Shown here piece after piece: positions 2,469-58,047 of a DNA stretch of 58,047 bases. Each line of letters starts with the position of its first letter. Position 1 is the first letter of the stretch. The notes under the pieces are model-generated. The model searched no databases, was not told the origin of the DNA, and was given only the letters and a program-made list of their open reading frames with translations. The stretch is from Clostridiales bacterium (lineage in GTDB: Bacteria; Bacillota; Clostridia; Acetivibrionales; JBDMZA01). The stretch spans positions 1 to 58,047 of the forward strand of contig JBDMZA010000668.1 of assembly GCA_039770155.1 (NCBI GenBank), given 5' to 3'. The translations under genes and the position numbers were made by a program.

Positions 2469-2831
2469 ATGAAAAAAGCAATAAAAAGCCCGAAAATTAT
2501 AGGTTTGTTTTGTATCTTCTTTTTAATTGGATATGTTATCCTAAATAAAAACTTCCAGATTAAACATCCATTGCTATCATGGGGAATAGTGTATTGTATA
2601 CTCCCAGCATATTTATTTATTTTAGTCAAACATAAGCTGGGAAAAATAAAAGCTCCAGTTAAGAAAGAAATACAAAAACCACCTCCACAAAATTATGATG
2701 ATTATGATAACTTTGATAATTTTCAAGTACAAAAAGTTGATAGGCTCGAAAAGAAAACTACAACAACAAACACAACAACAACTGTAACTACAGAAACTAT
2801 TTATTTTAAGGGGAATGGATATGAAGAATAA
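2469..2831 (+). CDS. Membrane protein with a Thr-rich C-terminal tail
   Basis: Two hydrophobic segments lie in the N-terminal 55 aa. An RBS (aggagg) is upstream and the gene is co-oriented with the operon. Confidence 0.5.
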   Translation: MKKAIKSPKIIGLFCIFFLIGYVILNKNFQIKHPLLSWGIVYCILPAYLFILVKHKLGKIKAPVKKEIQKPPPQNYDDYDNFDNFQVQKVDRLEKKTTTTNTTTTVTTETIYFKGNGYEE

Positions 2832-13842: not shown

Positions 13843-14166
13843 TTAAACAGTTCTTACAAGAAGTTTGAAGCTATATCCTATTTTTTCAAGGTCTTCTTTT
13901 GATAATATTTCGCCTTCTGGAGGTCTTCCATTTAGCTTAAAGCATAATGCTTGCTGTTCTTTTTCCTGAGAAAATAATATTCTATTCACAGGAATCTCAA
14001 CATCTAATAGACTTGTTAATATTTGAGCTGTGCTATTATGTCCAACCGCAGACAATATTTCACTTTCACTAACAAGTTTTTTTGCTTCTTCTAGAGATAT
14101 AGTTTTTAAACTATAATCTCCGTCGTTTGTAATTATTGTCGTATTTAATATTGCTAATTTTTTCAT
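13843..14166 (-). CDS. DUF1874 (STIV B116 / YddF-like) protein
   Basis: The full-length pattern ILNTTIITNDGDY...ISLEEAK...SAVGHNSTAQILTSLL...PVNR...GRPPEGEILS...IGYSFKLL matches the remembered family consensus. Confidence 0.7.
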   Translation of the reverse strand: MKKLAILNTTIITNDGDYSLKTISLEEAKKLVSESEILSAVGHNSTAQILTSLLDVEIPVNRILFSQEKEQQALCFKLNGRPPEGEILSKEDLEKIGYSFKLLVRTV

Positions 14167-14844: not shown

Positions 14845-15075
14845 CTAGAATGGAAGATCACTTTCAATTATTTCTTTTTCAATTTGGTTTTGCCTTTCAA
14901 TAAATTTTTCGATTCTCGTTGAATCCTCTTCTGTCAGTACCCAGCTATTGAGCTGGGTATCAAAAAATTCTGTGAAATCTTCATTTGTGTTTCCTTTCTT
15001 AACTGAATCTTTTTTTCTCTTTTCAGTATTTAAAAATATACTAAATAATTTTGACATATTGTTTATTCCCTCCAT
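14845..15075 (-). CDS. Hypothetical protein
   Basis: An ORF in the operon with an RBS (ggaggg). Confidence 0.45.
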   Translation of the reverse strand: MEGINNMSKLFSIFLNTEKRKKDSVKKGNTNEDFTEFFDTQLNSWVLTEEDSTRIEKFIERQNQIEKEIIESDLPF

Positions 15076-29508: not shown

Positions 29509-29790
29509 CTATAGATTCTCTATTTCATCATACTCAACAAAATTTCTGTTTTCTTTATTCCTGATGAAAGCATGAAAAGCTGATTCTTCAGGGAGACTTT
29601 TTACAAAATTTATAAACCTTCTCCAAGTAATTTCATTGTTAAAAACTGCCATTACTAGGTCTATTTTGTAATATCTCCAAAAATCAGCTTCTAGATACCC
29701 AAACCCCCATATTATAATTCTCAGATCACCCGTATTTTTTTTTTGCTTGATTTTTGTTATCTTTTGATACCCCATAGCCCCATTCGTCAA
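29509..29790 (-). CDS. Frameshift extension of the tail assembly chaperone (gpT-like part of a G-T fusion)
   Basis: It overlaps the 3' end of the gpG-like ORF in the +1 frame and has no credible RBS or ATG of its own. The A10 tract at 29735-29744 lies in the overlap. Confidence 0.6.
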   Translation of the reverse strand: MTNGAMGYQKITKIKQKKNTGDLRIIIWGFGYLEADFWRYYKIDLVMAVFNNEITWRRFINFVKSLPEESAFHAFIRNKENRNFVEYDEIENL

Positions 29791-30205
29791 GAATTGGGGT
29801 TGCTAGTTTGTCCATTATCATGTCAAATTCAAACTGTTGTTTGCTACTCTCCAGCGAATTCAAAAACTGCTTACCAAGCATTAATTCAATAAATCTGGCA
29901 AATTTATCTTCTGGAATATCAATAACTTGTTTCCCATTTTTCCTTTTCAAACACCATCGAAAAAAAAACATTGAGAAATCAAGAGGCATGGAAGCTGGTA
30001 TTTCATAGAACTTATCTTGAAATCGGATAGTAAAAGGTTTGGATTTATGCTCCTTTACAACTTCATCAAAGTCTATCAGTAACCTTTCCTCTTGCTCTCT
30101 TTTTTCATCTTCCAATTTTTGATCAAGCAATTCAAGTTTCTCAATATTACTCTCACTTAATTCATTAGAAGGTGATAATTCCTCTATATTATCCTTATTA
30201 TCCAT
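29726..30205 (-). CDS. Tail assembly chaperone (gpG-like)
   Basis: It is acidic, lies between the major tail and tape-measure genes, and ends in an A10 tract. Confidence 0.65.
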   Translation of the reverse strand: MDNKDNIEELSPSNELSESNIEKLELLDQKLEDEKREQEERLLIDFDEVVKEHKSKPFTIRFQDKFYEIPASMPLDFSMFFFRWCLKRKNGKQVIDIPEDKFARFIELMLGKQFLNSLESSKQQFEFDMIMDKLATPILDEWGYGVSKDNKNQAKKKYG

Positions 30206-30242
30206 TTTATATTTCCTTTCTAACTGGTTCTTTTTTTATTTT

Positions 30243-30692
30243 TTAGCTACCTGGTACTATTGCGGATAATGAGTTTATCCTAAAAGTCCCTTTAAACTTA
30301 TACGTTGACGTGGTTGATGCCGCCTCTTCATATGATGTAAAAAATCCTGTGCAAATATCCCCATATCCGTTCTTTTTTGTATGTCGAACAGTTACGATCT
30401 TCCCTGTTGTAGCCGCGTCCTTTAGTTCACTTTGGCCATCATCCAGCCCTGCGGCGGCGGTTTCAATTGATATACCTTCAACTTCAGCAGTTTCCCCGAC
30501 TGCCAGCGGTGTGAATTCCTTATGAAGAACATCAGTTCCGGCGATATAGTCCTCTGCACCTGTGATATCTTCCTCGTCAATTGATACATTTCGTTTCCAT
30601 GATGTTACTTTTGCGACAGGTTCAGAGTCAACTGTTATTATCGTTCCGGCGAATTTTACCTCACCAGCTACATTTGTTGACATATATTTCAC
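30243..30692 (-). CDS. Major tail protein
   Basis: The call rests on position, size (149 aa) and a strong RBS. Confidence 0.55.
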   Translation of the reverse strand: MKYMSTNVAGEVKFAGTIITVDSEPVAKVTSWKRNVSIDEEDITGAEDYIAGTDVLHKEFTPLAVGETAEVEGISIETAAAGLDDGQSELKDAATTGKIVTVRHTKKNGYGDICTGFFTSYEEAASTTSTYKFKGTFRINSLSAIVPGS

Positions 30693-42982: not shown

Positions 42983-43535
42983 GTGTTATATCTCCTTTTT
43001 CCCCATTACTAGATTTATCCCACTTTTGATCACATTCATATTTATTAATATTGAAATATAATGAATTATAATAGTTTCCATCCCAGTATTTACGACCAGG
43101 AAGAGTCACTTTAGTTGCATTATACATCCCACAAATTCTATCCCAAAATTTTATATAATTTTCGTTTAAGGTATAACATTCTCCGTAAATATTTGTTAAA
43201 TTTAATTGGTTGAATCCAGCATCTAAAAGTAACTCAATTGAATTCGTCCCTTTTCCTTTTCCTCTTTGATTAGGTGCGATAATTATAGATATTTCGCCTA
43301 ATCTATTTTCCCATTCAATATTTACAAGCCCCACCATTCCAAAAAAGTCTATTCCAGAAGGCCCTCTAACTGCCCAAAATCTACAATTAGAATTTCTATT
43401 ACAAATTTTGTTCTCATAAAATTCTTTTTGCATTTCTTCAGTTAAAAAAAATGGAGTTCTGAGTGATTCAATATTGTTATTTCTCCATATCCTCACTTTT
43501 TCTACATCTCTTAAAGTTAAGCAGTCTAATTTCAT
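42975..43535 (-). CDS. GNAT-family N-acetyltransferase (PseH-like by context)
   Basis: It has a PseH-like N-terminus LRDVEKVRIWRNN... and an acetyl-CoA motif QRGKGKG. Confidence 0.6.
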   Translation of the reverse strand: MKLDCLTLRDVEKVRIWRNNNIESLRTPFFLTEEMQKEFYENKICNRNSNCRFWAVRGPSGIDFFGMVGLVNIEWENRLGEISIIIAPNQRGKGKGTNSIELLLDAGFNQLNLTNIYGECYTLNENYIKFWDRICGMYNATKVTLPGRKYWDGNYYNSLYFNINKYECDQKWDKSSNGEKGDITHG

Positions 43536-43543
43536 ATCACTCT

Positions 43544-44272
43544 TTATCCTTTCATTTTCATTAGATTTATGATGTCACTAATCTTTTCAAAGTCTTCTTT
43601 TGTATCAATACTAAGTTTTGTTTTTATATCAGACCAAAATAAATTGGTGTCATTACAACTTTGGTTTAGTATATTATATTTATCCTTATTATTTCTGATG
43701 TACAAAGTCACATGTTCCTTTTCTGCCCCAGTTAAACTATCTATATTAAGATACATTTCCTCTAATATTTTTGTCTTAAAGACTTCAACATCAAGCCCAG
43801 AAGGCATAAAATTATTGTGTCTATTCCACGAATAATCATATTCATTGACGCAATGATCGTAAATAATAGAATCGATTATATGAGGGAAAAACGCTAATAA
43901 CGGGCAATCAGATGTGATACGAACAATATTATCTATCCTGTTGTTTTTTGATATTTCCTTGTAACATTTGTAATACCTCGATAGAACATCGTTTTCTGGC
44001 ACATCATAAACAAGAATATCATCTTTTGCAAAATATTCAGATTCTTTGTGAATGTCGATTAAGGGTTTATCCTGCTCAGTTAAAGGAACAATTATTTTTG
44101 TCAGCGGGATGTAATGGCTGTTTTTTGCCGCTTCTAAAACGTAAGCCAATACAGGCATTCCAGCTATTTTTTTCAAAACTTTACCTGGTAACCGAGTACT
44201 CCCCATCCTAGCCTGGACTATGCATAAAACATTAATAAATCCATCTGTTTTTTTATGTTTTCTCATTTTCAT
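43544..44272 (-). CDS. CTP_transf_3 / SpsF-type cytidylyltransferase (candidate CMP-nonulosonate synthetase, PseF-like)
   Basis: The sequence is CIVQARMGSTRLPGKVLKKIAGMPVL. Confidence 0.65.
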   Translation of the reverse strand: MKMRKHKKTDGFINVLCIVQARMGSTRLPGKVLKKIAGMPVLAYVLEAAKNSHYIPLTKIIVPLTEQDKPLIDIHKESEYFAKDDILVYDVPENDVLSRYYKCYKEISKNNRIDNIVRITSDCPLLAFFPHIIDSIIYDHCVNEYDYSWNRHNNFMPSGLDVEVFKTKILEEMYLNIDSLTGAEKEHVTLYIRNNKDKYNILNQSCNDTNLFWSDIKTKLSIDTKEDFEKISDIINLMKMKG

Positions 44273-44553
44273 TCACTTCTTTCATAAATATTTTTATAAA
44301 ATCTTTTTCCTAATACATCAAATCCTTTTGAATATGCATATAATTCATATTCAGAGTATTCAAATCTTAACCCTTTACAATACAACATAAATCTTTTAGT
44401 ATAATATTTTTTATCAGTATTAAAAACATAATAAGGCTTTAGTAGTTTCCCATTACTGTTTTTTATCATCAAATATTTCCCATATATTTTAATTTGATAT
44501 ATTCTTTCTCTTTTGATTACTACATCTAAAAAATCTAATTTATTTTGATTCAT
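44269..44553 (-). CDS. Hypothetical basic Tyr-rich protein within the glycan operon
   Basis: An ORF with overlapping stop/start on both sides. Confidence 0.45.
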   Translation of the reverse strand: MNQNKLDFLDVVIKRERIYQIKIYGKYLMIKNSNGKLLKPYYVFNTDKKYYTKRFMLYCKGLRFEYSEYELYAYSKGFDVLGKRFYKNIYERSE

Positions 44554-44562
44554 GATATCCCT

Positions 44563-45189
44563 TTACAGTATTTCTTTTAACTGAGCTGGTGTTCTTGCAA
44601 AATTACCAGAATCCAGACCAGTTGAATTCTCTAACTTATAATGCCATTCAATTTTTTCAGGTTTATATTTACGATATAAATCAAAGTTTGATGTATGGTC
44701 AGAGATATAACGTAATTGATTTTTATTAAAGTTTTTTTCATAATCACCTAATTTTGCTGGATATTTTGATATGCAACAAAACAGCTTTGTATCATAGTAA
44801 TAATGTAATCCTGTCGTATAACTAGCATATACAGTTATTCCACGAGGGATAAGGTCTATTAATGGGTAATATTTCTTATTATTCGCAATTTTAACAAAAG
44901 GAAGATCCGCTTTAAACCCTAATAAAAAATTTAGTGAATCCTCATCAAAAACACTAGCTGTTGTTTTATATCCTTTTGTTTCTGCATATCTCATTGCAAA
45001 TACAAAAACATTTTGGTTGAGCGGAATATTTTCCCCAGCCTTTTCAAATAGTTGCCATTTTATTATTATTTTATATTTTCCGGAATCAATCGCTTTTAAC
45101 TGGGCAATCATTTCTCTAACAATGTCTTTATCGTTCTTGCAAGTATTTCCACTCCCAAAATCTAAAATAATTTCATTTTCTATTTGCAT
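44563..45189 (-). CDS. NeuB/PseI-family nonulosonate synthase TIM-barrel domain, lacking the C-terminal SAF domain
   Basis: It aligns by eye along the barrel of remembered C. jejuni PseI (MQI..., KWQLF vs KIQT, FVKIAN vs YKIAS, ISDHTS vs LSDHS, IEWHY vs IEKHF). It ends at 208 aa. Confidence 0.5.
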   Translation of the reverse strand: MQIENEIILDFGSGNTCKNDKDIVREMIAQLKAIDSGKYKIIIKWQLFEKAGENIPLNQNVFVFAMRYAETKGYKTTASVFDEDSLNFLLGFKADLPFVKIANNKKYYPLIDLIPRGITVYASYTTGLHYYYDTKLFCCISKYPAKLGDYEKNFNKNQLRYISDHTSNFDLYRKYKPEKIEWHYKLENSTGLDSGNFARTPAQLKEIL

Positions 45190-46283
45190 TTATCAATTAC
45201 CTCCAGTATTTTATTAGATATATAATTAACATCTTTTTCAGTTAAGGCACAATAAATTGGGATACTCAATATGTTATTCTTTATTTTTTCAGTGTTTAAG
45301 CATTTTACATTCTTATCAATGCTTTCTCCCAGGTTGCTTGAATGCTTAAGATAATAATAAGGGTGGTCGTAAACAGGGACATAGTGTATCTGTGTTTGTA
45401 TCCCATGATTGAGTAATTCTTGTCTAACTTTATCCCTATTGTTTACTTTTATAATATATAGATGGCAGGCGTTCGAAACTGGGAATTTTAATTGGTTTAA
45501 CGAATATTTTTTTAGTTTATAATAATATTCGCTAAAAATAAAATTTCGTCTAGATATAAAGTGGTCCATTTTGTAGTATTGGCTAATACCTAACGCTGCA
45601 TTGATATCAGACATTTTGTAATTATACCCAAGATAAACCATTTTGTTCTGGACCATCCCATGGATTCTTAAACATTTCATTAATTCATATGAAAAACTGT
45701 CATCCGTCAATATCATGCCACCTTCACCAGTTGTTATATTTTTGACTGGGTGAAAACTGAAACATACAAAATCCGGCTTTTCATTTTCATTAAAATAGTT
45801 GATTCCAAACGAATGACAAGCATCTGAAATTAGAATTAAATTTCTAGTTGTACAAATTTTCTTTAATTCTTTATAATTGCACAATTGCCCAGCCATATCA
45901 ACAGCTATAACAGCTTTTGTGTGCTTTGTTATTTTTCTTACTACATCTTTTGTATTAATCAGAAGCGTGTCTTCTTCAACATCAGCAAAAACAACTTTTG
46001 CACCACACATTTCCACAACATTTGCAGTTGCAACGAATGTTATGGCTGGTACAATAACTTCATCATCTTTTTTAAGGTCCAGAGCTTTTAAAACTAAATG
46101 TAATGAAGCAGTCCCAGAATTAACAGCTATAGCATAACTAAAAGAAAAATTATCCTTGATTAAGTTTTCAAACTTTTCTACGATAGGACCTTGGGTTAGA
46201 CACTTACTTTCAAGTGTCTTTATAACCGCGCTTATATCGCTTTCGTCTATGTAATGTTCTCCATATCGATATTTTTTATCCAT
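45180..46283 (-). CDS. pseC: DegT/DnrJ/EryC1-family PLP aminotransferase (PseC-like)
   Basis: The fold pattern is typical (LTQGP..., AVNSGTASLHL, PAITFVAT, FSFHPVKNITTGEGG with the catalytic Lys). The gene is adjacent to pseB. Confidence 0.8.
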   Translation of the reverse strand: MDKKYRYGEHYIDESDISAVIKTLESKCLTQGPIVEKFENLIKDNFSFSYAIAVNSGTASLHLVLKALDLKKDDEVIVPAITFVATANVVEMCGAKVVFADVEEDTLLINTKDVVRKITKHTKAVIAVDMAGQLCNYKELKKICTTRNLILISDACHSFGINYFNENEKPDFVCFSFHPVKNITTGEGGMILTDDSFSYELMKCLRIHGMVQNKMVYLGYNYKMSDINAALGISQYYKMDHFISRRNFIFSEYYYKLKKYSLNQLKFPVSNACHLYIIKVNNRDKVRQELLNHGIQTQIHYVPVYDHPYYYLKHSSNLGESIDKNVKCLNTEKIKNNILSIPIYCALTEKDVNYISNKILEVIDKCK

Positions 46284-47247
46284 TTAGAATATTCTCCATT
46301 TCTGAAACTGATAGCCGCTCAGTATTATTATCTGAACTATATGAAAAATCACCATCAACCTCTGAAAAATCAGCAAATGGCACTTCATAATTAAGCCAGT
46401 CAAAAACAGGTTTAATTATGAAAAATTCTCCACAATTTAATACATTTCTACTTTCTTCATTTGATATCAATGTTTCATGAAGCTTTTCCCCTTGCCTAAT
46501 TCCAATCATATCAATCTTACACTCAGGTGCAATTGCTTCAGCTAGTTCAACAACTCGCATTGATGGAATCTTAGGGATGAAAATTTCTCCACCTTTCATG
46601 TATTTTAGTGCAGTCAGAACAAATTCAACACCCTGATCAACTGTTAGCCAAAATCTAGTCATTCTATTATCTGTAATCGGAATCTTTCCTGTTTTCTTAG
46701 CTTCCTTAAATACATTGATAACAGATCCCCTTGAACCAATAACATTCCCATACCTAACAACAGATATACGAACATCTTTAGAGCCAACATAACTTGCCCC
46801 TGAGATTGCAAGCTTTTCCATGCATAATTTTGTAGCACCATACAAATTTACAGGATTTACCGCTTTATCTGTAGAAATAAAAATAACTCTTTTTACTTTA
46901 GTATCAATTGCAGCTTCAATTATGTTTTGCGCTCCAATTATGTTAGTTCTTATAGCTTCATACGGGTTATACTCACAGGATGGGACTTGTTTCTGAGCTG
47001 CAGCATGTACAACTATATTGATATCAGTGAAAGCCCTTTTAAGTCTGTTATAGTCTCGAATATCACCAATTAGAAAAGAAATCCTATCTTCATCTTTATA
47101 AAATTTTTGCATTTCAGATTGTTTTAGTTCATCTCTTGAAAATACATATATTTTTTTAACCTCATGTGCTAGTGCCTGTTTTACAAATTCTTTTCCAAAT
47201 GTGCCAGTACCCCCTGTAATTAATACTTTTTTATTTTTTAAGTACAT
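46276..47247 (-). CDS. pseB: UDP-N-acetylglucosamine 4,6-dehydratase (inverting), PseB/FlaA1 type
   Basis: It carries LITGGTGTFGKEF, FSRDELKQSEM, HAAAQKQVPSCEYNPYEAIRTNIIGAQN, STDKAVNPVNLYGATK, VRYGNVIGSRGSV, MTRFW and GIRQGEKLHE. The start is placed at the ATG after GGAGG. Confidence 0.9.
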   Translation of the reverse strand: MYLKNKKVLITGGTGTFGKEFVKQALAHEVKKIYVFSRDELKQSEMQKFYKDEDRISFLIGDIRDYNRLKRAFTDINIVVHAAAQKQVPSCEYNPYEAIRTNIIGAQNIIEAAIDTKVKRVIFISTDKAVNPVNLYGATKLCMEKLAISGASYVGSKDVRISVVRYGNVIGSRGSVINVFKEAKKTGKIPITDNRMTRFWLTVDQGVEFVLTALKYMKGGEIFIPKIPSMRVVELAEAIAPECKIDMIGIRQGEKLHETLISNEESRNVLNCGEFFIIKPVFDWLNYEVPFADFSEVDGDFSYSSDNNTERLSVSEMENILNG

Positions 47248-47401
47248 CTTAACCTCCAACCGTTTTTATACATATATTATAATACTAAAAAAAACAAAAA
47301 AAAAGATAACTTTGGAAACTATCATCTTTTTTTCTTTTTTCTTTCTAGAATATTTAGAAAGAAGGCAAAACCACCATGACAATAATATTATAACATACAA
47401 C

Positions 47402-48037
47402 TTAATCCCTAAACCAGTCTATAGAATTGTCAAATAAATCTTCAGAGATAGATTCTTCACCTCCTTCATAATGTCTATATTCTCTTATATCCCAACCATC
47501 AGGAACAACAATTAAATTCCAATTAATAGAGTAACTCTCAATTACTGAAGGCTTATCCATCCATTTTATTTTCCTGCCTACTATTTGTTTTTCAAAATTT
47601 TGTTCATTGAAGGGAATAGGATGTTCATGTATTTCAATCATTATCTTTCTAGCCTTTGCAATCCCATATTCAATGTCTCTAACTATAAAGTCATAGAATA
47701 TTTTATCATTTCTAGTTATTTCAAATTTTACAATATCATTCATTTCTGTTTCATTCCATTTTGTTTTTATAAAATTTGATTCATAGAATCTCATCCCCCA
47801 TGAACAGATTACCCCTGAAAACTCAATTAAATTATCATACGTTGGTTTTTCTCCTCTTGGAGATGCCCAATAATTATTATTTCCCCATTTCCCACCAATA
47901 CTATGAAAATGATTTTCAATTCTATAGACATCATAATATTCTTTATTTGAATAAGTGTCCCATTTCATTAACTCCATTTTTAACTTTGTAAAATCAGTAT
48001 TTTTGTCAATTAATTTTATTTCTGCCATTGTATACAT
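47402..48037 (-). CDS. Hypothetical protein (211 aa)
   Basis: An ORF between the head genes and the glycan operon with no motif. Confidence 0.5.
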   Translation of the reverse strand: MYTMAEIKLIDKNTDFTKLKMELMKWDTYSNKEYYDVYRIENHFHSIGGKWGNNNYWASPRGEKPTYDNLIEFSGVICSWGMRFYESNFIKTKWNETEMNDIVKFEITRNDKIFYDFIVRDIEYGIAKARKIMIEIHEHPIPFNEQNFEKQIVGRKIKWMDKPSVIESYSINWNLIVVPDGWDIREYRHYEGGEESISEDLFDNSIDWFRD

Positions 48038-48055
48038 TTCCTTTCAACAAAATAT

Positions 48056-48274
48056 TTAAAATCTGTCTATATCTTTTGGATTATTTAAGATTCCAAAACT
48101 ACCCAATGACACAATTATAAATGTCAGTGTAGCAGCTACAACCTTTTGATCGACACCAATTTTTTCATATACACCCCATAACCCAAGTATTACAACCAAT
48201 TCTGTTACAAAACTCAGCCAAACCACAGGACTTTTGACCCTATTATTCCTTTCCATTAACCTCATTCCTTTCAA
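48056..48274 (-). CDS. Small two-TM membrane protein (holin-like topology)
   Basis: The two hydrophobic segments are VVWLSFVTELVVILGLWGV and VVAATLTFIIVSLGSFGIL. Confidence 0.45.
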   Translation of the reverse strand: MKGMRLMERNNRVKSPVVWLSFVTELVVILGLWGVYEKIGVDQKVVAATLTFIIVSLGSFGILNNPKDIDRF

Positions 48275-56374: not shown

Positions 56375-56490
56375 CATATAATAGAGTGTGTCCAAAGGTG
56401 TCCAATTTCACTTTTTCTTTTTACCTATAATACCTTATAATAAAAGGCATTCAAGACATATAATAAAGACTGTCCAAAGGTGTCCAATTT
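56375..56490. promoter_or_regulatory. Two 34-bp direct repeats (56375-56408 and 56457-56490), each containing a tandem TGTCCAA-AGG-TGTCCAA; operator/promoter candidates
   Basis: The copies read CATATAATAGAGTGTGTCCAAAGGTGTCCAATTT and CATATAATAAAGACTGTCCAAAGGTGTCCAATTT. Confidence 0.6.
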
Positions 56491-56839
56491 ATATCCTTTC
56501 ATTTATCCTTTTTATTTTTTCGAAAATTTCAGGAGGTAGTTTTTCTTTAATTGAGTTTAATTCAGTTAAGGAAAGATACTCTTCGTGGAGTTCATACCCA
56601 CCGTCATAACCTCCATATGTCCGTAAGTCATACCCTAGAGACAATATAGTTTTTTTCCAATTGCTTATCACCCTGGTCTTAACTCCAAGGCTTGCTGCAA
56701 TTTCTGGCATTTTCATTCTTCTATCTTTGTTTTCTCTTAACAGTTTAATCATCTTTATCGCGTTGTTTTCTACTCCCATACTACTCACCTTTCTTCGAAT
56801 ATATAATCCTGTCATGGTAGTCATACTTTTGTATATCAT
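56489..56839 (-). CDS. HTH_11/DeoR-N-like winged-helix regulator
   Basis: The sequence is IKLLRENKDRRMKMPEIAASLGVKTRVISNWKKTILSLGYDL. Confidence 0.55.
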   Translation of the reverse strand: MIYKSMTTMTGLYIRRKVSSMGVENNAIKMIKLLRENKDRRMKMPEIAASLGVKTRVISNWKKTILSLGYDLRTYGGYDGGYELHEEYLSLTELNSIKEKLPPEIFEKIKRINERI

Positions 56840-56963
56840 TACGACTACCTGTCAATAAGTCATATTGAAACTCTATTTCTTTGTAATTACCAAGGAGATC
56901 CTTATAAATTACAATATCTTTCTTTTCATCAAACTTGTCTTTCATTTCATCAAATTCTTTCAT
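56781..56963 (-). CDS. Hypothetical small protein
   Basis: The first ORF downstream of the non-coding origin region on the minus strand. Confidence 0.4.
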   Translation of the reverse strand: MKEFDEMKDKFDEKKDIVIYKDLLGNYKEIEFQYDLLTGSRNDIQKYDYHDRIIYSKKGE

Positions 56964-57072: not shown

Positions 57073-57363
57073 GGTTCAATACCTCAGAAATATTGAACAT
57101 TGAAACGATAAACTTAAGCTTATTACTGTTTTTTTCGATAAGGAACTACAATGAAACGTATTACTTTATATAAATTTATTATGGAAAATAATGTTGCCTC
57201 TATTATAACATAAGTTCCAAAACTCTGCAATGTACAAAAATAAAAAAAGTATAAAGCTGGTCAAAACTTTATACTTTTAGTTTATCATTTTTTTCATTGA
57301 TATAACAATCATAAAAACATTATATTTTATTTTTGGAAATACTTCAATATATTATTTTTTCAA

Positions 57364-57459
57364 AATTTACATTCCATTATGGTCAGATTAATCTTTTCCT
57401 TTTTAACTGAGTCTTTTTCTGCATTCTTGCCAATTTACATTCCAATATGGTGGGATTAA
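57364..57459 (-). CRISPR. Candidate mini-CRISPR array: two 28-nt repeats (25/28 identical) separated by one 40-nt spacer
   Basis: R1 (57364-57391) is AATTTACATTCCATTATGGTCAGATTAA. R2 (57432-57459) is AATTTACATTCCAATATGGTGGGATTAA. On the minus strand both end in GGAATGTAAAT(T), like clostridial type I-B repeats as remembered. Confidence 0.45.
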
Positions 57460-57548
57460 ATACAACTCTTGTTAAGGTTCAAGTAATTATGTCTTAAATT
57501 ATATTTTATTTTTTGAAATACTTCAATACTTCAATATTTTTTTCTAAA

Positions 57549-58047
57549 GGTTAACCTGAAAAGTTTAGGTTAACTTAATCTAAAAAAAGTTAACCAGTTA
57601 AAGAAAACCATCTATCAGGCTCTAATAGATTGAAAATAGGGTTAACTTTTTGGTTAACTTTTAGGTTTTCCTTAACTGAAAAATGATAGGGGGTAACTTT
57701 TTAAATTTTAAAAAAGTTACTTTAATATATCAAAAAGTTACCCCACTCAAACCAAGTTATATCAATGACTTAAAACTACTTTTTTTAAATCGGGGTAACT
57801 TTTGCAGGTTACCCCCTCTAGCCCACTGATAGACTTAAAAAATGCATTTTTTTGATAGGGGTAACTTTTTTTTTGAAATATAGATATATATATGTAATAT
57901 ATTTATTATTATTACTTATATATATATATAATATTATTATTAAAAGTTACCTTATAAATAAATATATATATATAGTACTAATAGCCTAAAAACAGGGGTA
58001 ACTTTTGGGGTAACTTTGGGGTAACTTTTGCTAGTTTAAAAAGTTAC
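57549..58047. repeat. Iteron array of the replication origin (GGGGTAACTT / GGTTAACTT, direct and inverted)
   Basis: GGGGTAACTT occurs at 57690, 57792, 57858, 57995, 58007 and 58018. GG(G)TTAACTT occurs at 57568, 57639 and 57652. Inverted copies occur at 57588, 57733 and 57807. A palindromic GGTTAACC is at 57549. Confidence 0.75.
57875..57985. other. (TA)n / AT-rich tract; candidate DNA unwinding element
   Basis: The sequence is almost pure A/T with tatatatata runs and is embedded between iterons. Confidence 0.6.

Follow-up and report, generated by a model that had tools for sequence, protein, structure and literature searches.

The window analysed here, the whole of contig JBDMZA010000668.1 (58,047 nucleotides (nt), from the Clostridiales bacterium assembly GCA_039770155.1), is, judging by its gene content, the genome of a tailed phage, or of a phage-plasmid, whose host is Gram-positive. 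Beside its origin-like region it carries, on the minus strand, a short unit made of two type I-B CRISPR repeats, which flank one 38-nt spacer and the first of which is fused upstream to the remnant of a second repeat family. It is highly probable that this unit is CRISPR-derived and built to be expressed. As to its role, we tentatively favour, at somewhat less than an even chance, a phage-encoded, cas-less type I-B mini-array that would use the Cas proteins of the host and provide a guide against a competing mobile element. This reading is preferred because the spacer is full-length, the handle-forming repeat ends are intact on both sides, the spacer is phage-like with mismatches to the phage's own sequence, and there is precedent for viral mini-arrays. 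The observations made here concern the I-B identity of the repeats, their geometry, the absence of I-B cas genes, the phage context and the conservation of the unit in a sister phage.

Repeat identity

Two 28-nt copies, at 57364-57391 and 57432-57459, start 68 nt apart and are identical at 25 of 28 positions. An earlier reading made from the letters of the window (hereafter the sequence-only reading) had reported exactly this, and both alignment and a unique-site scan bear it out: with up to 3 mismatches, a 20-mer of the copies finds 2 sites in the 58-kb window against 0.06 expected, a count reached by none of 100 shuffles, and a looser scan of the window (up to 5 mismatches in 18) gave no additional close copy. 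On the minus strand, the 3' end of both copies is the 18-mer CCATAWTGGAATGTAAAT, which also closes the repeat at its 3' end in many CRISPR arrays. An exact scan for this 18-mer in one genome per species yielded at least 119 loci; among the matches listed are more than 60 regularly spaced arrays, from Romboutsia, Peptacetobacter, Clostridium, Longibaculum, Acetobacterium, Fusobacteriaceae, Finegoldia and others, and a stricter pattern recovered about 25 further arrays from metagenomes. In total, the 3' 18-19 nt of the repeat are identical to the repeats of more than 85 arrays. The same exact scan of IMG/VR retrieved a viral contig (L006) with a ten-repeat array (repeat ATTTGAATTTAACCATATTGGAATGTAAAT, spacers of 34-37 nt) followed by a terminator, while a comparison of the window repeat with GenBank phage records returned no match.

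The likeness to host arrays extends beyond this 3' end. The promoter-proximal repeat of the window, R2, is identical at 29 of 31 positions to GTATCTAATCCAACCATATTGGAATGTAAAT, the repeat of a Clostridiales genome bin (L135) and of metagenome contigs L143, L151 and L154, and the TTAATCTGACC of the downstream repeat, R1, is also found inside the host repeats of L145, L160 and L172. The cas neighbourhood of this repeat family was examined at two loci. In L151, a complete cas6-cas8b1-cas7-cas5-cas3-cas4-cas1-cas2 operon (encoding Cas6, Cas8b1/Cst1, Cas7/Cst2, Cas5, Cas3, Cas4, Cas1b and Cas2) is followed in the same direction by an array with the 29/31 repeat. In L085, a near-identical repeat, which has the ATAATGG variant present in R1, adjoins Cas8b1, Cas7/Cst2, Cas5t, Cas3 and Cas2. 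The presence of CCATAWTGGAATGTAAAT in more than 85 arrays, together with the 29/31 repeat beside a complete I-B operon, upholds the proposal of the sequence-only reading that this is an orphan, phage-borne mini-array with clostridial type I-B-like repeats; the outcome that would have spoken against it, a repeat matching no host CRISPR repeat, did not occur, as the repeats match I-B host arrays.

Members of the same repeat family also occur as 1-3 copies directly after promoters in many other viral contigs and Bacillota genomes (L002, L008, L019, L003, L009, L016, L010, L018, L014, L017, L022, L028, L045, L079, L095, L126 and L141). Their copies are spaced 46-106 nt apart, some of the 'spacers' are only 17-27 nt long, and several units are then followed by a terminator; they are candidate repeat mimics or regulators resembling CRISPR RNAs (crRNAs). 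A separate observation concerns L151, where the divergent, repeat-end-like AATTTACATT and ATGTAAAG flank a short palindrome upstream of cas6 (1690-1740) and may be the remnant of a host regulatory repeat.

Layout of the unit

Repeat boundaries were reset from the host arrays, in which the true repeat is 30-31 nt long and ends in ...GTAAAT. Because host-array repeats end in this way, R2 was placed at 57433-57463 (31 nt, GTATTTAATCCCACCATATTGGAATGTAAAT), the spacer at 57395-57432 (38 nt, TGGCAAGAATGCAGAAAAAGACTCAGTTAAAAAGGAAA) and R1 at 57365-57394 (AGATTAATCTGACCATAATGGAATGTAAAT), all on the minus strand. The 28+40 geometry with a 40-nt spacer described in the sequence-only reading accordingly gives way to repeats of 30-31 nt and a 38-nt spacer, and the 68-nt period equals a 30-nt repeat plus a 38-nt spacer. 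This spacer length falls inside the 34-39 nt range of host spacers from the same repeat family (n=1521, of which 5% are 38 nt long), and the spacer sequence occurs only once in the window. The 5' end of R1 is degenerate: R1 and R2 differ mainly in their first 5 nt and at two more 5' positions, and a single base differs within their 3' 19 nt, a variant that also occurs in host arrays. No stable folding was found for the repeats on their own, and non-folding repeats are usual for clostridial I-B systems.

In minus-strand order, the locus consists of a promoter, the fused remnant of the second family (RB), the 31-nt R2, the 38-nt spacer, R1, a second promoter copy and a terminator. The two repeats of the first family (family A) and the one fused repeat of the other do not reach the usual detector threshold of at least 3 regular repeats; with two family-A repeats only, the unit is a mini-array and not a standard array. 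Both repeats of the two-repeat, one-spacer description that preceded this work are real, and what it had overlooked is the third repeat, of the second family, at 57454-57483.

A second repeat family fused upstream

RB (57454-57483, minus strand, CTTGAACCTTAACAAGAGTTGTATTTAATC) resembles a repeat of a second I-B family and was recognised through its match to the Rfam model CRISPR-DR3. At a permissive threshold it scores 35.9 bits against a gathering cutoff of 41, with an E-value of 0.016 over 1.1 kb that is not significant window-wide; at gathering thresholds Rfam gave no match in the window. The hairpin of the CRISPR-DR3 model is retained in RB, through change on both of its sides. RB is also identical at 26 of 30 positions to the repeat of a genuine three-repeat array on a Pseudalkalibacillus plasmid (L189), and it resembles the solitary GTTGAACCTTAACACGTGGTGTATTTAAAT found directly after a promoter in Clostridium phage CWou-2020a (L190). 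An Rfam search of four relatives found nothing, and the exact RB pattern had 0 matches in IMG/VR.

The 3' end of RB is altered and merged into the next repeat, its final 10 nt, GTATTTAATC, being the first 10 nt of R2. As a consequence of this 10-nt overlap, the predicted transcript starts with a hybrid of two I-B repeat families. We infer from the sequences that the RB-R2 fusion arose by recombination at the shared GTATTTAA.

Predicted promoters and terminators

A promoter predicted by consensus scan, P1 (57498-57526, minus strand; TTGAAG, 17 nt, TATAAT; 10 of 12 matches), reads toward the repeats, and its predicted start lies about 7-10 nt before RB, the first repeat-like sequence. The sequence of P1 is identical in the sister phage L177. 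A second predicted copy with the same boxes and spacing, P2 (57319-57347, minus strand), lies downstream of the array, both copies being part of a direct repeat of 42 nt and 86% identity (57319-57360 and 57498-57539). The sequence-only reading had seen here a bracketing 32-bp direct repeat and suggested that it could be a leader-like sequence in duplicate; the repeat is real, although it extends over 42 nt and represents a duplicated promoter, only one copy of which is upstream of the array.

Downstream, on the same strand, lies a terminator-like intrinsic hairpin (57236-57274; GTATAAAG...CTTTATAC followed by a T run) of -12.4 kcal/mol, with a z-score of -4.0 against shuffles. This hairpin, which is kept in L177, is likely to be the 3' end of the array transcript; its G-C pairs are too few for the consensus terminator scan to have called it. 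A second downstream hairpin on the minus strand (57075-57044) reaches -13.4 kcal/mol. The repeats are thus preceded by a predicted promoter and followed by a predicted terminator, all on the minus strand, and the array of the viral contig L006 likewise precedes a terminator.

Two small non-coding units can be delineated downstream of the array. In the first, P2 is followed after about 45-75 nt by the terminator at 57274-57236; the second has TTGCAG, 17 nt and TATAAT (about 57232-57204), followed by about 130 nt with the hairpin GTTCAATA...TATTGAAC and by a bidirectional terminator at 57075-57044. The second of these units, well conserved in L177, is a possible small RNA. We also considered an RNA downstream of R1 that would target the duplicated promoter, and dropped it, because the two promoter copies are not in register at the place of seed pairing.

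The phage genome and its surroundings of the unit

The window is circular, the same 41 nt standing at both of its ends, and its G+C content is about 28-30%. Among its genes are those for both terminase subunits (small and large), a portal of the SPP1 type, a minor capsid protein, RecT, a helicase resembling RecD2, an endolysin of the amidase class, an ATPase resembling FtsK and a replication protein with DUF927. A search for tRNA genes gave none.

Eight I-B Cas proteins of L151, compared with the window by tblastn, gave nothing below an E-value of 0.07, and PADLOC models applied to its 59 open reading frames (ORFs) identified no core Cas protein. The statement that the genome has no cas gene therefore stands for type I-B, with the qualification that a DUF1874/Csx16-like protein of the AcrIII-1 family is encoded. 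The ORF in question (13843-14166, minus strand, 107 amino acids (aa)) matches Pfam PF08960 (STIV_B116-like/DUF1874) over its full length with an E-value of 4.6e-30, and the PADLOC Csx16 model with 5e-18. STIV_B116-like/DUF1874 proteins constitute the AcrIII-1/Crn2 ring-nuclease family (10.1101/778746, PMC8284326). By this similarity, the product is a probable anti-type-III-CRISPR protein and not a I-B gene, which suggests that the phage also counters type III CRISPR.

The region adjoining the unit is rich in iterons and origin-like, in agreement with the position beside a replication origin assigned by the sequence-only reading: a stretch of 596 nt has 18 GKTAACYT iterons, and the remaining 57 kb of the window have 8. 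These iterons (57541-58047 and 1-130) surround a palindromic tract rich in (TA)n and occur in both orientations. The region is upstream of a MerR-like gene and of the DUF927 gene, and assemblies of the same virus break there.

In the structural block, a pseudaminic-acid-type sugar cluster (about 43500-48100, minus strand) encodes PseB (E-value 1.8e-134), PseC (1.9e-98), a cytidylyltransferase and short-chain dehydrogenases. The cluster is shared with the relative L178 (15647-19946) and may glycosylate virion proteins.

Conservation and turnover among related phages

Homologues of the large terminase delineate a lineage of phages of about 55-62 kb in metagenomes. One of them, the sister phage L177, with 97% terminase identity, was obtained from another sequencing run; it carries the unit at the same place, with identical promoter, hybrid repeat and R2, a single change in the spacer (G3A) and two changes in the degenerate 5' part of R1, while the sequence just downstream of the unit has diverged, with insertions and deletions. 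In L178 (69% terminase identity, 58.5 kb) gene order is kept and the unit is absent. L179 and L180 (68% terminase identity) carry a different mini-array at another place in the genome (296-410 in L179, about 1128-1240 in L180), in which ATTTATATTAACTATGTGGTATGTAAAAT is followed by a spacer of 39 nt, a repeat whose 3' end is degenerate, and a terminator. The L179 repeat matches multi-copy CRISPR arrays of C. difficile phages; no target of the L179 spacer was found. On this comparison of sequences, the unit is an accessory cassette, and I-B mini-arrays specific to a host recur in the lineage.

Other routes to relatives were less productive: looking up exact proteins led only to the same virus in run SRR25010665, a search of IMG/VR with the DUF927 protein gave no relatives, and GenBank phages had no blastn match to the 1.1-kb region.

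Origin of the spacer

The spacer resembles phage sequence. A motif that takes in its 3' 22 nt, AAAGAYYCAGTTARAAAGGAAA, has 4 matches in the window including the spacer itself, against 0.02 expected; the others are at 2649-2670 (plus strand), 14991-15012 and 30212-30233 (both minus strand), and in these two minus-strand copies a ribosome-binding site closes the motif, right ahead of a start codon. Extending the comparison to the whole spacer, 28 of 38 positions agree without gaps with 30212-30249 (minus strand), which spans the stop of the ORF at 30243-30692, an intergenic region and the ribosome-binding site of the ORF at 29726-30205. This junction lies just upstream of the tape-measure gene, and the mismatches include seed positions 2, 5 and 7. 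A score of 28 was reached by 1 of 400 shuffled spacers and by 7 of 1500 random viral 38-mers. The sequence at 30212-30249 may be a diverged counterpart of the protospacer, and such a pattern of self-matching would be expected if the guide came from the orthologous site of a related phage, which is suggestive only. Partial matches to the spacer in L022, L094, L166 and L091 were rejected, as they amounted to only 16-24 of 38 positions on extension.

Proposed mechanism

The events that we infer, from transcription and processing to loading and target, would proceed as follows. The sigma-70-type promoter (57526-57498) would drive a short minus-strand transcript containing the fused CRISPR-DR3-family remnant, the 31-nt repeat, the 38-nt spacer and the second repeat with its intact 3' half, and ending at the hairpin terminator. 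In type I-B crRNA processing, Cas6b cuts 8 nt from the 3' end of the repeat. In a cell with a matching I-B system, such cuts 8 nt before the 3' end of each repeat would free one crRNA, in which the 38-nt guide stands between the 5' handle AUGUAAAU and a remnant of the repeat at the 3' end, and this crRNA would load into the host Cascade. The guide would then most likely direct the Cascade and Cas3 of the host at a competitor, either a related phage or another mobile element, leading to superinfection exclusion, and the phage crRNA would also draw Cas proteins away from host crRNAs.

Several points weigh against a guide of this kind. No host array was found with a repeat identical to R2, the best being 29/31. 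BLAST of the spacer against phage and plasmid databases, a check put forward in the sequence-only reading, produced no protospacer, with blastn hits in GenBank phages and PLSDB plasmids of E-value 0.5 or worse only; three spacer pattern scans of IMG/VR (N at every sixth position; positions 1-23, 4-26 and 13-35) had 0 matches, and a local BLAST against about 1.4 Mb of fetched loci, including the relatives and the window, found no protospacer either. Conversely, among approximately 1500 host spacers from arrays of the repeat family, no match to the phage was longer than 23 nt. The 28/38 self-similarity is marginal (p of about 0.003-0.005) and lies in A-rich sequence, and the orthologous tail-gene junction gave no match to the spacer in L191, where it is identical to the window, or in L192 and L194, where the motif is missing. 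The change at seed position 3 in L177 fits a sequence-independent role as well as co-variation with a target, the promoter-proximal repeat remnant resembles anti-CRISPR loci, and transcription and processing of the unit are predicted. Just past the non-coding region, moreover, at 56489-56963 (minus strand), a 60-aa ORF (56963-56781) immediately followed by a 96-aa helix-turn-helix ORF (probable start 56779), with an upstream promoter (TTTACT, 17 nt, TATAAT), has a layout that resembles an anti-CRISPR gene with its regulator; neither PHROGs nor PDB lent support to this pair as an anti-CRISPR operon.

Alternative explanations

The most serious alternative is that the unit produces an anti-CRISPR RNA, either a Racr-like repeat mimic that would tie up Cas6b or Cascade, or a Cracr-type RNA that would pair partially with a host cas or defence promoter and silence it without cleavage. 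We regard this as a real possibility, nearly as likely as a guide directed against a competitor. RB starts only a few bases after the predicted transcription start, as do solitary viral repeats (PMC10651486) and the repeat of phage CWou-2020a, both family-A repeats keep the half that serves Cas6 and the handle while the remainder drifts, and the sister phage L177 is changed at a seed position. Other viral contigs have the same repeat family after promoters with 'spacers' of 17-27 nt, too short for normal guides, and an AcrIII-1-family protein is co-encoded in the window. Furthermore, Clostridium phages that copy I-B regulatory mini-arrays are documented (10.1101/2023.03.03.530964), and viral crRNA-like RNAs that silence cas genes have been reported for type I-B among other types (10.1101/2024.10.29.618823). 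The spacer of the window is, however, full-length at 38 nt, whereas the documented phage copies of I-B regulators are shortened, and R2 and R1 flank it, so that the unit is not a solitary repeat. A seed-weighted scan with the first 23 spacer positions gave nothing relevant in L151, including the 240 nt upstream of cas6, or in L085, L143, L135, L160, L172 and other I-B loci, all of which are candidates and not the established host locus of the phage; nor was a host mini-array of the repeat family with a similar spacer seen.

Combining both roles, the locus might be a composite RNA module directed against two type I-B variants, in which a DR3-family decoy has been fused through GTATTTAA microhomology to a guide mini-array, and which would belong to a lineage of about 58 kb that swaps host-specific cassettes with host change, alongside the AcrIII-1-family protein. 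Family A plus DR3 is the cassette of the window and L177, and that of L179 is of the C. difficile type. We consider this combined picture rather unlikely. A functional two-family hybrid would exemplify a single viral RNA that addresses two CRISPR variants.

It is also quite unlikely that the unit is a decaying remnant, that is, a captured piece of a host array or an older mini-array carried without function. The degenerate 5' third of R1, the fusion of R2 to a fragment of another repeat family, the failure to find a spacer target and the lack of the unit in the relative L178 would all fit such decay. A remnant would hardly be expected to keep a near-consensus promoter directly upstream and a terminator downstream, with the functionally critical 3' 19 nt intact in both repeats, nor to remain almost unchanged in L177, from another sample, while the sequence just downstream diverged by insertions and deletions; the other host-specific mini-arrays of relatives, in turn, suggest recurrent selection.

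The two remaining explanations are effectively excluded. That the copies are non-CRISPR binding sites of an origin or regulatory protein, an alternative raised in the sequence-only reading, is very improbable: they lie about 100 nt from the iteron-rich origin-like region and each holds a short palindrome, CCAnnnTGG, but they are unrelated to the GKTAACYT iterons and instead match CRISPR repeats, the exact 18-19-mer being common to more than 85 CRISPR arrays, beyond coincidence, with a repeat spacing and spacer length that are those of I-B arrays and with Rfam CRISPR models matching the locus. An assembly artefact, in which a host CRISPR fragment was mis-joined to the phage, has a negligible probability, for although the assembly is of metagenome type and the iterons nearby are a place where contigs from the same run break, the junctions on both sides are identical in independent contigs of two runs (L176 and L177), a duplicated phage promoter flanks the unit, and there are only two repeats, one of them degenerate.

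Significance and comparison with known systems

Phage mini-arrays and repeat mimics are recognised viral means to exploit or blunt host CRISPR-Cas, and few cases have been described for type I-B in uncultured Clostridia. The repeat found here is of use for host prediction, since it links an uncultured phage to hosts with one particular I-B repeat family, and the comparison with relatives points to a turnover in which cassettes are gained, lost and replaced by host-specific versions within one phage lineage. With its promoter, hybrid repeat, 38-nt guide and second repeat, the locus also constitutes a testable construct for distinguishing between a guide, a decoy and a regulator.

Among known systems, the mini-arrays of the Sulfolobales portogloboviruses SPV1 and SPV2 (PMC6858448; reviewed in PMC11656645) are alike in being cas-less viral arrays of 1-2 spacers with host-matching repeats and a reliance on host Cas proteins. 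Viral mini-array spacers with known targets mostly match related viruses (PMC11656645, PMC6858448). In SPV1 and SPV2 the carrier genome differs from the guide at the cognate site, which in the window is only suggested by the 28/38 match, and for the window no matching protospacer in a relative was found. The window differs further in being bacterial, of type I-B and from a Clostridia-like and not an archaeal host, and in having a repeat that is 29/31 and not fully identical to the nearest host repeat.

The I-B regulatory mini-arrays of phages c-st and phiSM101 (10.1101/2023.03.03.530964) and the 'Cracr' RNAs (10.1101/2024.10.29.618823) share with the window a Clostridia phage setting, a two-repeat I-B unit with one divergent repeat, an own promoter and a possible anti-defence context. 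Their spacers are shortened and share a seed with the host mini-array upstream of cas6, whereas that of the window is of full length and without detected similarity to the cas6-upstream region or to a host mini-array. Racr solitary viral repeats (PMC10651486) are repeat mimics placed directly after a promoter in phages without the cognate cas genes, a description that RB fits, although its 3' end is altered and fused; in contrast, the family-A part of the window is a repeat-spacer-repeat and would count as a mini-array under the pipeline of that study (PMC10651486). Finally, C. difficile phages and prophages (CDKM15, phiSemix9P1) have I-B repeats ending in ...GTATGTAAAT and no cas genes, the repeat type being that of the relative L179; theirs are arrays with several spacers and, compared with the window, a different repeat family.

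Virus-borne mini-CRISPR arrays are thus already known, and the unit described here leaves the current picture unchanged. What is new is that this repeat family is found on a complete phage genome, as it is absent from GenBank phages, that repeats of two I-B families are fused behind one predicted promoter, and that there is evidence of a single phage lineage exchanging host-specific mini-arrays.

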